Shown: piece by piece, positions 11,525 to 23,222 of the stretch
Layout of the letters: each line of letters begins with the position of its first letter
Numbering within the stretch: position 1 is the first letter of the stretch
Source: an uncultured Clostridia bacterium
GTDB taxonomy: Bacteria; Bacillota; Clostridia; TANB77; CAG-508
Length of the DNA stretch: 63,300 nt
Reading direction: 5' to 3'
NCBI GenBank assembly: GCA_944393485.1
Contig: CALYAJ010000001.1
Location: 1 to 63,300 of the forward strand
The notes under the pieces: model-generated
What the model was told of the DNA's origin: nothing
Seen by the model: the letters and a program-made list of their open reading frames with translations, nothing else
Database searches by the model: none
Program-made: the position numbers and the translations under genes

Positions 11525-13168
11525 TTAAGTTGGATCTCCTAAATCTAAACTCTTAAAAGCATTATACCTTTCTCTAAATAGAGCTGTATAATAAGCACTT
11601 TTAAGATTATTATTTGTGCTCTGTGCTAAAATTTCATCTACACTAGGCGAAATGCTTCCTTCAGCATTTGAAGAGCCATTTCCAGTAACTATATCGTTAG
11701 AAGAAACTATACAACTATAATCTGCTGTTGCATCTCGATGTGGATAAAATTGAGATGCTGTACCAGTTGCATCATTAAAACTTTGTGGTTCAAAATCTAC
11801 ATTTCTATATCCTATCAAATCCACTCCAACATTTGAAGAAAGGCTTGCATCTAGATGTCTAAAATCATGATATACATTTTCATTTTTATCATAAATATAT
11901 ATTAATTTAGGATCAACAAATTCTCTATTCTTATTATTTGTTACAATTGTGTATCCCATATATTCATTATAACCTAAATTTTGACCTTGCATGAATGCTA
12001 ATAAACATGTATTATTTAATATTCTATCCCATTCTATTTCTGTTAATGTTGGCATTTTAGCTGAATTTGCTGAATTTGCATTTCTTTTAGCTATAGTTGC
12101 TTCTAAATTTGTAGTTATTGAATGTCTAATAATTTGTTTTTTATGTTCCTCAAAATTATTCATTCCAGTATCAGTAAAGTTTATTAGTTTTTGTTCTCCC
12201 ATTGCCGTTGACATACCTAAATCCTCAAGTGATACATCTTGTATATCTTTATAATTAATCCAAGATAATTTATTTTGAACTTTTTCGGAAAAATCTTTTG
12301 CCTCTATTAAATATTGTATAGCACTGTCATCATTTCTTGGAGCTGTTCCTAATGCTGTAACATAAATATCTGTATAATTTTGTGTTGTTCCATCAACATT
12401 ATATTTAAACCATGCATTACCATCCCAATATGCCTTTTCTCTTCTTCCTTCACTATTATCTACATAAACATATTGCATTTCATTGTATCTTCCTTGACCA
12501 TCTCTTGCTGAAAAAGATGTAATATTGGCTTCATATAGTTCTTCTTCTACAATTGGTATTCCTTTATATGATCTTCCATCTGATGATACATCATTTGGAT
12601 TTACTAGATATCCTGAAAAAGTTTCATAATTGGAACCATCCTTTAAAAAAACTGTTATATAATTATCTAATGTATAATTTATTGTTGCTTCTTTAGTTCC
12701 TTCTTTATATCTAGCTGTATAATAAAAATATGGCTTAAGTCCATTTTCTGATTCATTTGAATTTAAATCTACTACTATTTCATCATTGGAATCTAAAGAT
12801 GCCACATTATTAAATTCTGTATAAATATAATATCCATCGTATAAAGTATATACTAATGCTGGTATATAACCGGCTAATTCATCTTCTGAATATCCTGCTC
12901 TTCCAAAATTTGTTGCCAAAGAATTATAAAAAGAATTAACAGATGCTTCAACATCTCTTATCTTTTCCTCTGATATATTTTGTGTATTACTATTTAACTC
13001 ATTAATTTGAAATGCTTTAATTGCGTCATAAGCAGCACTACTTAATATTGAATCATAATTGGCTTGTGTATTCATATAACTAATTTGTAATTGTAAATAT
13101 GCAGATGTTACTATTAAAATAGGTATTATTATTAGAATAAATATAACTATCCAACCCTGTAGTTTCAT
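11525..13168 (-). CDS. large N-terminally anchored hypothetical protein, distal gene of the pilus-like locus
   Basis: 547 aa with a single N-terminal TM segment (WIVIFILIIIPILIV) and a GGAG RBS. I recognise no family. It is separated from the upstream gene by two hairpins. Confidence 0.7.
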   Translation of the reverse strand: MKLQGWIVIFILIIIPILIVTSAYLQLQISYMNTQANYDSILSSAAYDAIKAFQINELNSNTQNISEEKIRDVEASVNSFYNSLATNFGRAGYSEDELAGYIPALVYTLYDGYYIYTEFNNVASLDSNDEIVVDLNSNESENGLKPYFYYTARYKEGTKEATINYTLDNYITVFLKDGSNYETFSGYLVNPNDVSSDGRSYKGIPIVEEELYEANITSFSARDGQGRYNEMQYVYVDNSEGRREKAYWDGNAWFKYNVDGTTQNYTDIYVTALGTAPRNDDSAIQYLIEAKDFSEKVQNKLSWINYKDIQDVSLEDLGMSTAMGEQKLINFTDTGMNNFEEHKKQIIRHSITTNLEATIAKRNANSANSAKMPTLTEIEWDRILNNTCLLAFMQGQNLGYNEYMGYTIVTNNKNREFVDPKLIYIYDKNENVYHDFRHLDASLSSNVGVDLIGYRNVDFEPQSFNDATGTASQFYPHRDATADYSCIVSSNDIVTGNGSSNAEGSISPSVDEILAQSTNNNLKSAYYTALFRERYNAFKSLDLGDPT

Positions 13169-13197
13169 TTTATCTCCTCACTTTATCAGTTGTAAAA

Positions 13198-13249
13198 TTC
13201 TTTTATTATATAAGAAAATATAGAATTATTTTCTTATATAATAAAAGAA
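13198..13249. repeat. 22-bp perfect inverted repeat (AT-rich hairpin) between the 177-aa and 547-aa genes
   Basis: Positions 13198-13219 pair perfectly with 13228-13249, leaving an 8-nt loop. A second small hairpin, GGTGT/ACACC, at 13252-13271 is followed on the minus strand by a T-run. Confidence 0.8.
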
Positions 13250-13290
13250 AAGGTGTTTTTTACAAGACACCCCTCATTTCTTTTTTTCAA

Positions 13291-13824
13291 TTAATTTCTT
13301 CCATTAACAGTAACAATACCACCTTGTGAACCACCTATTGTAGCAGCATCATTTCCTGTTACAGTATAAAAGAAGTTTCTTAATAATTGAGAAATTGTTG
13401 TGTTTGTATTTTTTGCACTAACAGATACAATATCTCCTTCTTTTAAATATTTAGTATAATTATTAGAAGCATCACTTATTTCATCTAATATTTGTGTTGT
13501 ATATTCTGAATAGTAAACATTTTCACCAATTTTTTCATATGTGGTTTGTGCTGTTTTTTTACCTGGATTTTCATCTAATACTTGTACTATTATTTCTACA
13601 TCATATGTATTACCTGTTGCGTTAAGTTCTCTAACAAGTCTATCATAAGACGATAGAGTTATTCGACCTGTAGAACGAACTTCATCCACAAATGTCGAAA
13701 CAGCATTTTGAACTGCTAATTGTGATACATCATCACTTCGGTCAGCCACTGACATTAGTGGAAACACAAATATTAATATTGCGCCTAATACTATTACTAT
13801 AATTGTAATCACTGTATCTCCCAT
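13291..13824 (-). CDS. small TM-anchored protein (possible pseudopilin/TadE-like role)
   Basis: 177 aa with the N-terminal hydrophobic helix MGDTVITIIVIVLGAILIFVFPL and a GGAGG RBS. The role is inferred from position in the locus only. Confidence 0.6.
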   Translation of the reverse strand: MGDTVITIIVIVLGAILIFVFPLMSVADRSDDVSQLAVQNAVSTFVDEVRSTGRITLSSYDRLVRELNATGNTYDVEIIVQVLDENPGKKTAQTTYEKIGENVYYSEYTTQILDEISDASNNYTKYLKEGDIVSVSAKNTNTTISQLLRNFFYTVTGNDAATIGGSQGGIVTVNGRN

Positions 13825-21457: not shown

Positions 21458-21478
21458 TTTGCATGCTCCTTTATATTA

Positions 21479-22165
21479 TTAAATTTCTTTTATTGCTTTT
21501 TTTATTCTTGATTGTGGAATTTCTTCTCCAATCAATTTTGAAGAAATATATTCCAATCCATCCCTATACATACTTGTTAAATTTTCAAATCTAACTTTAG
21601 ATATTTTTTGATTATTTATTATCGCTGCCTGGTCGCCCATTTCTAAAGGAAAATACACTCTTTCGTCTTTCCATATAACTTTTGAACCTAAAGACAAATA
21701 ATTTAAATAATCGTCATCTTCTTTTGAAGGTTCTCTTGCAAATAATACTTTTGTCATTTTTATTGGGACTTGAAACATATCTAATGCTTCAAGTCCTCTT
21801 CTTATTGAATACATATCGAAAGATGTTACAAAAAAGTTTTCTACACATTCTTGAATTTCAAAACTCATTGCATTTTCTCCTCGATCTATATCTAATAGAG
21901 CAAAATCATATTCTAATTGTCCAATAGGTTTATTTAAGTATTCTGCTATTCCTTGTATGTCGTTAAATCCTACTGCTACGTCCATTTCTTCAAATTCTGT
22001 AATATAAGACATAGTAGGATTTAGAACTGGTACAATATATTTAGCTTTTTGTGTAATTGTTGAATCTACTATTAAAACCTTTTTTCCTAGAACTGTTAAT
22101 ATTCTACCAATATATAAAATTAAATCAGTTTTGTCATATGCTCCTATAAACCCTACTTTTTTCAT
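21479..22165 (-). CDS. second ParA/MinD-fold protein with degenerate P-loop
   Basis: 228 aa. GAYDKTDLILYIG stands in place of the P-loop. KKVLIVDST and YDFALLDID motifs are present. Confidence 0.55.
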   Translation of the reverse strand: MKKVGFIGAYDKTDLILYIGRILTVLGKKVLIVDSTITQKAKYIVPVLNPTMSYITEFEEMDVAVGFNDIQGIAEYLNKPIGQLEYDFALLDIDRGENAMSFEIQECVENFFVTSFDMYSIRRGLEALDMFQVPIKMTKVLFAREPSKEDDDYLNYLSLGSKVIWKDERVYFPLEMGDQAAIINNQKISKVRFENLTSMYRDGLEYISSKLIGEEIPQSRIKKAIKEI

Positions 22166-22184
22166 ATTTCCTCCTACATATTAT

Positions 22185-23222
22185 CTAGTTTGCTGTAGTA
22201 TTTGTACTTGAAGAGTCTGAAGATGATGAACTTGCTGCTGATTCTGCTGCAACTGCTGCATCTTCAAGTGCTTGTAAATATTGTTGTCTTAATTCTTTTT
22301 GTGCTTCAATATGTTCTTCAACATTTTCTTCTAAGTTACTTCTTCTATCGTCAGCTTCTATACTATTTAACTCTGCATTAATGTAGTTTTCTCTGATAGC
22401 TATATTTCCAGAATTATTATATCTTTCTACTAAAGCACGTTTTGCTTCTTCTACAATATTTGGATCTTGATTTATTAATTCTCTTACTGCTGCATTTCCA
22501 GTATATGTTGGTGTAGCTGCTGCTTGCATTCCTGGATCTGTGTATCTAGAAACATATAATTCAATTCCGTTAGATTGATAAGCTTCTACAATTGCACATG
22601 ATACAGCTAAAGTTTCTTCCTCTGATAAATTAACAGTTATTGTACCTTCTGCTGGTGCTCCTGCTATTTCTGGTATTGCTACTTCTTTTTTAGCAGCAAT
22701 TATAAAGTCTTGTCCATTTGTCATACGCATACGAAGATCTATGTAATCTCCAGCCTCTAAGTCTACTGGTAAAGAGAACATATTATATTCTTGTTCTCTT
22801 AAGTCATCAGTAAGTGTTTCTGAGCTTACTGTTAACATATCTTTTGTTAAAATTGTTCCTGCTTTTAAATCTATTTTAGCAACTATATCTGATCTAGGAT
22901 TTCCATTTTCATCTTGAAAATCTGATGGTACAGCAAAGTTATCTGGAACGACACTAGCATCTGCTTCTCCCCTTTCTACATTTGCTGTTGCTCTTGTTGC
23001 ATCTCCCTCTATTGCACCAATTTGTAATCCATTTCCTGAAGAAACATCTTCTGAAACAACATAAACATCTCTTCTAGCAGCTTCTATTGCCTCTTGTTCC
23101 TTCCTTAAATTTACTAATTGAACAATTAAAAATGTTATTACTATAGCAGCTAAAATTACTGTTACTAACACACCTAATAAAAATGATACTCTTTTTTGTC
23201 TTTGCATTGGATTTGAAGCCAT
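22185..23222 (-). CDS. CpaB/RcpC-like pilus assembly protein (SAF-type domain)
   Basis: 345 aa with an N-terminal TM segment. AKIDLKAGTILTKDMLT looks like a SAF motif. The C-terminal tail is Ala/Ser-rich. It is the first gene of the locus and has a GGAGG RBS. Confidence 0.6.
   Translation of the reverse strand: MASNPMQRQKRVSFLLGVLVTVILAAIVITFLIVQLVNLRKEQEAIEAARRDVYVVSEDVSSGNGLQIGAIEGDATRATANVERGEADASVVPDNFAVPSDFQDENGNPRSDIVAKIDLKAGTILTKDMLTVSSETLTDDLREQEYNMFSLPVDLEAGDYIDLRMRMTNGQDFIIAAKKEVAIPEIAGAPAEGTITVNLSEEETLAVSCAIVEAYQSNGIELYVSRYTDPGMQAAATPTYTGNAAVRELINQDPNIVEEAKRALVERYNNSGNIAIRENYINAELNSIEADDRRSNLEENVEEHIEAQKELRQQYLQALEDAAVAAESAASSSSSDSSSTNTTAN

Follow-up and report, generated by a model that had tools for sequence, protein, structure and literature searches.

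The closest described relative of the locus treated here is the gene cluster that Kim et al. reported in 2024 for the bacterial lineage TANB77 (Nat Commun 15:10726). It comprises 10-14 genes, occurs in single copy in 122 of 129 species, and its representative of 12 genes, numbered 927-938, was called a 'pilus gene cluster' (PMC11680825). In this representative a CpaB-like protein (927, 358 amino acids, aa), a TadZ-like protein (928, 231 aa) and a CpaE-like protein (929, 280 aa) are followed by a TadA/CpaF ATPase with one transmembrane (TM) helix (930, 640 aa) and by a protein of 693 aa with 8 TM helices (931), whose first half is TadC-like and whose second half is TadB-like. Six single-TM 'pilin-like' proteins of 143-237 aa without detectable homology (932-937; 165, 170, 143, 146, 237 and 178 aa) and a 621-aa protein with a TadE/PilV-like N-terminal quarter (938) complete the set (Table 1, PMC11680825). 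Recombinant 938 activated dendritic cells via TLR4 and improved the anti-PD-1 response in mice; the cluster was said to be exclusive to TANB77, and neither a prepilin peptidase nor a conserved N-terminal motif is discussed (PMC11680825). The later literature on the cluster consists of one review. Here we analyse twelve genes on the minus strand of an uncultured Clostridia bacterium, placed in the same lineage by GTDB and, in our analysis, by the cluster match and by relatives named Candidatus Merdicola, which lie between positions 11525 and 23222 of a window of 63,300 nucleotides (the whole stretch of DNA that was analysed; contig CALYAJ010000001.1 of assembly GCA_944393485.1).

We found that this block, whose genes we number g1 to g12, corresponds to 927-938 in gene number, gene order and, nearly, in protein sizes. 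Both contain a TM-anchored CpaF-like ATPase, a platform protein of about 690 aa, six small single-TM proteins and a large last protein, while the window represents another species of the clade, whose small proteins share only 25-58% identity with those found elsewhere in it. Because the window matches 927-938 gene for gene, as judged from gene order, sizes and features, the block is the already known, putative Tad-like pilus cluster; a preliminary description of this DNA, made from its letters only, had called it possibly uncharacterised, and this no longer holds. Our best explanation, to which we assign a probability of about 0.72, is that the locus codes for a Tad-type (type IVc-like) filament machine that has diverged deeply, in a monoderm Bacillota bacterium, and that it is a copy of the published TANB77 cluster.

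Canonical Tad/Flp systems such as Cpa of Caulobacter and Tad of Aggregatibacter (reference loci L086, L088 and L090) share with the window a CpaF/TadA ATPase and ParA-like TadZ/CpaE proteins and, as putative matches, a T2SSF-type platform and a CpaB-like protein of the SAF type, all in the same order, and here the preliminary description, which had recognised a Tad/type IVc-like parts list, was right. The window deviates from them in several ways, however. It has a putative fused platform instead of the pair TadB and TadC and an ATPase with a TM anchor and an extra N-terminal region of 270 aa. The locus lacks the G/XXXXEY motif, a TadV and any recognisable TadE/TadF. The subunits span 104-319 aa and carry a globular domain, whereas the Flp peptides of canonical systems have 50-70 aa. 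Unlike canonical Tad loci, the window also lacks a secretin, as expected for a monoderm.

All twelve open reading frames (ORFs) are found on the minus strand of the window, and the independent gene calls of four public gut-metagenome contigs with an identical ATPase gave the same 12 genes, with lengths from g1 to g12 of 345, 228, 277, 650, 690, 211, 159, 143, 133, 178, 177 and 547 aa. A ribosome-binding site (RBS) of the GGAGG/AGGAG type precedes 11 of the 12 starts by 5-10 nt. Twelve co-directional genes, nearly all with such an RBS, had indeed been proposed. When GTDB was scanned with a single genome for each species, at least 553 genomes contained a relative of the ATPase. The best 80, which we examined, are metagenome-assembled genomes of uncultured gut Clostridia from humans, chickens, rabbits and ruminants, some of them assigned to Candidatus Merdicola. 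Most of these 80 species-level genomes keep the order HAD hydrolase, 12 genes, spoIVB; the conservation that the preliminary description had proposed to survey is thus real, and because the order is kept, the block is no chance arrangement. Across the 80 loci, identities amount to 78-91% for the ATPase, 59-89% for the 694-aa protein g5, 42-78% for SpoIVB and 25-58% for the small proteins. This is the pattern expected of a strongly constrained working machine with fast-evolving exposed parts, as far as sequence comparison can tell. We also note that the ATPase (18647-20599) is more conserved than the essential sporulation protease SpoIVB (10139-11365), an unusually strong constraint for an accessory surface machine.

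The ATPase g4 (650 aa; 18647-20599, minus strand) carries the motifs GEQGSGKTT (aa 377-385), VNIIGEVA (aa 445-452) and FTHHAKT (aa 473-479) on invariant columns of its family, exactly the three that had been read from the sequence; its Walker A, Walker B and His box are intact. The claimed membrane anchor is present as well: one TM helix spans aa 1-19 within the N-terminal region, which is specific to the family. When all 12 proteins were compared with Pfam and NCBIfam, g4 alone scored above threshold (T2SSE, 30.5 bits, cutoff 24.9); its best NCBIfam match was the TadA family TIGR03819, far under the cutoff. Against the PDB, the single sequence matched only CpaF (1e-10), and the family profile matched CpaF with 51 bits (6e-13) and VirB11 with 18.9 bits, while PilB, PilT, GspE and FlaI were not found at E<0.01. 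A tblastn search of 72,556 plasmids with g4 returned, outside its own family, the CpaF/TadA genes of rhizobia and Streptomyces, and enterobacterial VirB11/TrbB were absent at E<1e-3. Because CpaF is closest in the PDB and the plasmid relatives are CpaF/TadA genes with VirB11/TrbB missing, sequence comparison places g4 in the Tad branch and not with type IV secretion systems (T4SS) of the conjugative kind. Grouping of the ATPase with conjugative T4SS, an outcome against which the preliminary description had weighed its Tad reading, is at odds with the 18.9 bits of VirB11 against the 51 bits of CpaF.

The putative fused TadC-TadB (T2SSF-like) platform g5 (694 aa, 690 aa in the public calls; 16547-18631, minus strand) contains about 8 hydrophobic segments, in line with 931, rather than the roughly 10 TM segments counted earlier. 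Neither the single sequence nor a 70-sequence profile gave any match to Pfam, T2SSF included, or to PDB sequences, and hhalign of the first against the second half disclosed no internal sequence repeat. The AlphaFold2 (AF2) model is all-helical, with a mean confidence (pLDDT) of 75. As a platform reference we used 10 annotated TadB/TadC proteins from loci of Rhizobium, Sinorhizobium, Azospirillum, Salipiger and Streptomyces. The first half of g5 aligned with them at hhalign probabilities of 63-83% (E 7e-5 to 9e-6) over about 200 columns, with reversed-sequence controls at or below 0.6%. In the published work, the TadC/TadB likeness of the two halves was obtained with AlphaFold2 and Foldseek and with databases that include predicted structures (PMC11680825). 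The proposed single fused platform is accordingly supported in its first half and suggested in its second, the score of which we give below. As a side observation, the C. botulinum plasmid pOsaka2020-1 carries a second, different CpaF-like cluster (L087, 8938-12557) with a 468-aa ATPase, a 57-aa Flp-like ORF and two separate membrane proteins of 298 and 359 aa, which match the second half of the g5 family at 96% in hhalign and annotated TadB/TadC weakly. This cluster may stand between canonical and fused platforms as an intermediate form.

Upstream of the ATPase, g1 (345 aa; 22185-23222, minus strand) is composed of a TM anchor (aa 16-34), a SAF-like domain of the CpaB/RcpC type and a Ser-rich tail. 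Its Pfam SAF match is weak (E 0.023, under the cutoff), as is the precomputed SAF match of the Paenibacillus homologue, and its profile found nothing in the PDB. The family profile aligned at 76% with SAF proteins of Firmicute and Actinobacterial Tad loci (reversed control 0.2%), but at only 0.6% with proteobacterial CpaB, where the reference alignments held 1-8 sequences and had low power. For the published counterpart, likeness to CpaB was seen at the structural level (PMC11680825). The next two genes had both been described as ParA/MinD-fold proteins. This stands for the CpaE/TadZ-like g3 (277 aa; 20624-21457, minus strand), whose Pfam AAA_31 match (8.9e-5) stays under the cutoff and whose family profile retrieved 3EA0, an ATPase of the ParA family (1.4e-5), followed by GET3, Soj and MinD. 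For the TadZ-like g2 (228 aa; 21479-22165, minus strand), which has no Pfam match, it stands weakly: its profile reaches MinD at E 0.017, and hhalign with g3 at 33% points to distant kinship. The gene is kept in 78 of 80 loci, and PMC11680825 labelled its counterpart TadZ-like on structural grounds. Walker A is degenerate in both proteins, and because the P-loop of g3 reads TGQTS here, with Gln in place of the Lys of the family consensus TGKT, g3 is probably not an active ATPase in this genome.

A series of small proteins is encoded next. Four of them, g6 (211 aa; 15896-16531), g7 (159 aa; 15393-15872), g9 (133 aa; 14419-14820) and g10 (178 aa; 13844-14380), all on the minus strand, are pilin-like paralogues that begin with MENASKAL or, in g10, MENAAEAL; the shortest, g9, is the candidate major subunit. 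Across the 80 loci, 290 ORFs carry M1 E2 N3 A4 x x A7 L8, typically three to five per genome, and the N-terminus reads M-E-N-A-[S/A/T]-[K/D/E]-A-L-[I/L]-[I/M]-A-G with a hydrophobic helix directly after it. Residues 1-25 of g9 are invariant across 69 orthologues at an overall identity of 42-60%. Such conservation is unlike that of a Sec signal peptide and, on sequence grounds, typical of a pilin alpha1 helix. The AF2 model of g9 (pLDDT 86) has the N-terminal helix of 53 residues (2-53, with a kink at 35-36) followed by a small alpha/beta domain, so that its predicted architecture is pilin-like and combines the helix and globular domain that the preliminary description had asked about. The fifth of the supposed paralogues, g8, is divergent. 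Its true start is the ATG at 15309 with the RBS GAAAGG, which replaces a 155-aa ORF by one of 143 aa (14878-15309, minus strand) with the N-terminus MKKIICIIC..., and a promoter-like element TTTACA-18-TG-TATAAT lies at 15326-15355. Its alpha1C region is akin to the g9 family (hhalign 73%), but its N-terminal anchor or signal differs; the five helix-bearing paralogues proposed earlier are therefore four MENA-type proteins and this relative.

The last two genes encode further putative subunits. The best-conserved small TM protein, g11 (177 aa; 13291-13824, minus strand), is a putative minor or priming subunit with a median identity of 55% in TANB77-type loci and orthologues in Paenibacillus, Thermobacillus, C. 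botulinum and Lysinibacillus (E 3e-25 to 2e-6). The N-terminally anchored g12 (547 aa; 11525-13168, minus strand), the counterpart of 'pilin 938', is a putative tip or minor pilin whose outer domain varies, and it is orthologous to the fourth small protein, of 327-342 aa, of Paenibacillus and Thermobacillus (E 8e-13 and 5e-11).

We turn to the maturation of these subunits. The preliminary description had seen no A24/TadV prepilin peptidase in the locus or the window, which motif search, a small A24 hidden Markov model (HMM) and Pfam corroborate: no G.GD[VIALFM]K motif occurs in the six frames of the 63.3 kb, and the polytopic ORFs of the window have other Pfam identities (DAG kinase, AgrB, histidine kinase, NfeD and FtsK). 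Equally, neither the Flp motif G/XXXXEY nor a G/FTLxE signal is present in the small proteins, just as described; no Gly precedes the hydrophobic stretch, and there is no EY. The further statement that a class III signal is lacking was overstated, however. An invariant K6-A7/L8 closes the seven-residue segment MENASKA ahead of the 20-residue hydrophobic stretch, and archaeal class III sites with Ala at -1 (RALS, RAVS, DAVS) are known (Table 1, PMC4371748). Because K6-A7/L8 fits those sites, cleavage by a peptidase encoded elsewhere is conceivable; MSH and other filament loci depend on such a peptidase (PMC6668835). A longer leader is not possible, because the MENASKAL ORFs already have maximal length and a strong RBS precedes each Met, which leaves at most seven residues. 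Judged from the sequence, removal of a seven-residue leader and use of the uncut protein are equally conceivable.

Archaeal type IV pili (Epd, Aap, PilA) are the proposed ancestors of Tad (PMC6668835), and their subunits resemble those of the window in several respects: the N-terminus is short and charged, Ala stands at the putative -1 position behind a charged residue, the H-domain hardly varies among paralogues, Glu at +5 is not obligatory, and a globular domain is present. In addition, the g9 family gave at-threshold or sub-threshold Pfam matches to archaeal families (DUF515 in 31 of 69 members, SoxE_N in 21 and DUF7288 in 13), which cover mostly the hydrophobic helix. The ATPase, in contrast, lies closer to bacterial CpaF than to any archaeal entry of the PDB, and no FlaK, PibD or EppA-type peptidase is found nearby. 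A separate type IV filament lineage may also be considered, marked by a TM-anchored CpaF-like ATPase, a fused platform and leaderless subunits, in which the MENASKAL proteins would polymerise without a prepilin-peptidase step or after the action of a non-A24 enzyme. We regard this as a tentative possibility, doubtful at present.

Several observations weigh against the interpretation as a Tad-type filament machine, and we list them here together. Family assignment of g1 and g2 rests on the weak matches given above. In Foldseek searches of the PDB, the g9 model matched no solved pilin, and the whole g5 model found no platform protein and nothing significant. The second half of g5 reached 2-3% on the T2SSF columns to which the first half aligns. 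By hhalign, no small-protein family matched the Flp, TadE or DUF4320 profiles (for Flp, no better than the reversed control), with g11 negative against TadE and DUF4320 and g12 against TadE, although these references comprised 1-8 sequences and had low power. Motif and small HMM searches, and Pfam on all polytopic ORFs, detected no A24-type gene in the window, nor in 88 related loci to a distance of about 10 kb. Finally, no filament has been observed so far, neither here nor in PMC11680825, which shows no filament and contains no electron microscopy term. The missing peptidase, the non-Flp subunits, the anchored ATPase and the fused platform are real anomalies, which the literature has so far left unexplained.

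The mechanism that we propose for such a Tad-type machine is as follows. The ATPase hexamer would dock on the fused platform and use ATP to lift MENASKAL subunits out of the membrane, which would stack via their conserved N-terminal helices into a filament that crosses the wall through the g1 assembly. The subunits would be used either as made or after a cut at K-A/L by an A24-type peptidase encoded elsewhere. Priming of the assembly and occupation of the tip would fall to g8, g11 and the large g12, the variable domain of which would face the host, and g2 and g3 would position or regulate the machine. The same machinery could also build a short wall-spanning pseudopilus for protein secretion or DNA uptake, in the manner of ComG or of the Tad-dependent transformation of Micrococcus, rather than a long adhesive pilus. 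Several paralogous subunits without an evident Flp-like major pilin would suit such a device, and Tad systems are known to serve in transformation (PMC4322843). The window, however, holds no DNA-uptake genes (ComEA/ComEC-like) and no secreted substrate beside the locus, and the fast-evolving outer domains together with the large variable g12 suggest surface exposure; a pseudopilus therefore seems unlikely to us.

The machine is not confined to TANB77. The 694-aa family forms 1,117 representative clusters at 50% identity, with members in cultured Paenibacillus (P. larvae, P. sediminis and others), Cohnella and Saccharibacillus. Among the 72,556 plasmids, 34 carry a full-length relative of the ATPase at 37-58% identity. 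Their hosts include Thermobacillus, Cohnella, Paenibacillus, Cytobacillus, Sporosarcina, Alkalihalophilus pseudofirmus OF4, Lysinibacillus sphaericus, Clostridium argentinense, C. botulinum and Butyrivibrio proteoclasticus. Seven loci inspected on chromosomes and plasmids (L081-L085, L098 and L099) display a nine-gene order of SAF protein, two ParA-like proteins, ATPase, membrane protein of about 680 aa and four small proteins, the exception being C. botulinum p12/29 with a cell-wall hydrolase in place of the second small protein. The first small protein starts with MNNASTAL, MSTNASKAL, MGENARKAL or MESPVVKAI and is, in the Bacilli and C. botulinum loci, homologous to the g9/MENASKAL family (hhalign 98.3%), while the third and fourth are orthologues of g11 and g12. 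Because of these correspondences, the sequences identify the TANB77 cluster as the nine-gene Bacillota module with its first subunit gene multiplied. The published claim that the cluster is exclusive to TANB77 (PMC11680825) contrasts with this nine-gene core, which Paenibacillaceae, Lysinibacillus, Clostridium and Butyrivibrio carry as well, in many cases on megaplasmids. Literature searches brought up no account of the module in its Paenibacillus or plasmid forms.

The occurrence on plasmids raises the idea of a mobile-element function, in which the module would form mating-pair or aggregation pili of Gram-positive megaplasmids and the TANB77 copy would be a domesticated descendant. On pTHECO01 the module indeed lies downstream of genes for a replication-relaxation family protein (4.8 kb away) and a T4SS coupling protein (about 8 kb away), and cell-wall hydrolases flank it on the Butyrivibrio and C. 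botulinum plasmids. Conjugative T4SS further resemble the locus in that they possess a hexameric ATPase of the same secretion superfamily and in that relatives of the locus reside on large plasmids, but the window contains no VirB4, VirD4 or relaxase. Moreover, coupling-protein and relaxase genes are not adjacent in pBsph, pBpOF4-01, pCY186 and p12/29, the carrier plasmids are mostly typed as non-mobilizable, and chromosomal Paenibacillus copies exist on contigs of 4-9 Mb. The TANB77 block itself is chromosomal, single-copy and syntenic with housekeeping genes (also PMC11680825). We thus hold a mobile-element function to be very unlikely. Conjugation of the pXO16 type was considered separately and rejected, as pXO16 has a pCW3-like, T4SS-related system.

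The surroundings of the relatives show recurrent features of their own. On the Bacilli megaplasmids the module is followed by genes for an S-layer-homology protein and a DUF5704 protein of about 1000-1200 aa. A GGDEF diguanylate cyclase gene comes after these on pTHECO01 and pBpOF4-01, with an HD-domain phosphohydrolase also there on pTHECO01; on the C. botulinum plasmid, too, a GGDEF gene lies downstream of the module, and an HD-domain gene lies upstream of it. These genes (L083, 19042-25764; L085, 15566-19939; L098, 22325-27949; L084, 22333-23382) may constitute a conserved accessory and cyclic di-GMP control set. Directly before the SAF gene, the chromosomal Paenibacillus copies have a gene for a Ser/Thr protein kinase of about 490 aa (L081, 3989-5515; L082, 4030-5505), and the plasmid copies an unannotated gene for about 470-550 aa.

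A different role could be read from the position of the locus in a spore former, between an alpha/beta small acid-soluble protein gene and spoIVB (Peptidase_S55, 1e-86), namely that of a sporulation-linked apparatus that makes, for example, spore appendages; the carriers that could be identified are mostly spore formers, too. The preliminary description had implied such a link, which is not supported. An intrinsic-terminator-like hairpin with a GC stem, GGTGTCTTGTAAAAAACACC, and a T-run follows g11 at 13252-13271 (minus strand), with an AT-rich inverted repeat just 3' of it, so that the two hairpins reported after the 177-aa gene are both present. A further terminator-like hairpin with a T-run, read from the sequence at 11486-11513 (minus strand) 3' of g12, closes the locus ahead of spoIVB, which has its own RBS. 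Because the Paenibacillus and plasmid relatives carry the machine without spoIVB as a neighbour, the sporulation link reduces to local synteny. A sigma-70 promoter scan delivered no usable signal in this AT-rich DNA of 27% GC (78 sites against 85 expected). To our knowledge, the carrier Butyrivibrio proteoclasticus does not sporulate. A sporulation apparatus is hardly credible on these grounds.

Outside the locus, the window has some further features. Just upstream of the locus region, a 436-aa ORF (24717-26027, minus strand) has no Pfam family and no homologue in the 80 related loci, but it is kept in contigs of the same species and is apparently a species-specific insertion. A 1220-aa protein (35605-39267, minus strand), whose many leucine-rich repeats are joined by a dockerin-like segment at the C-terminus, adjoins a 277-aa protein (34757-35590, minus strand) that has a cohesin domain and, at its C-terminus, a hydrophobic anchor, a pair (34757-39267) that resembles cohesin-dockerin surface display. 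In an agr-type quorum-sensing set (39658-42707), AgrB is encoded at 42096-42707 (minus strand) and a GHKL histidine kinase with 7 TM segments at 40385-41731 (plus strand); the 261-aa ORF next to the kinase (39658-40443, plus strand) is probably the response regulator.

We know of no isolate of TANB77. With the core machine present in cultured, genetically accessible Bacillota, assembly, subunit maturation and exposure of the counterpart of 'pilin 938' become testable, and because the module occurs in cultivable hosts, so do the anomalies described above. No molecular feature other than this cluster has so far been connected with the reported benefit of TANB77 in anti-PD-1 therapy (PMC11680825). 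If the subunits of the cluster turn out to work without a prepilin peptidase, the type IV filament superfamily would need a wider definition, and the Bacillota-wide module would be the first type IV filament lineage without the peptidase that defines this superfamily.

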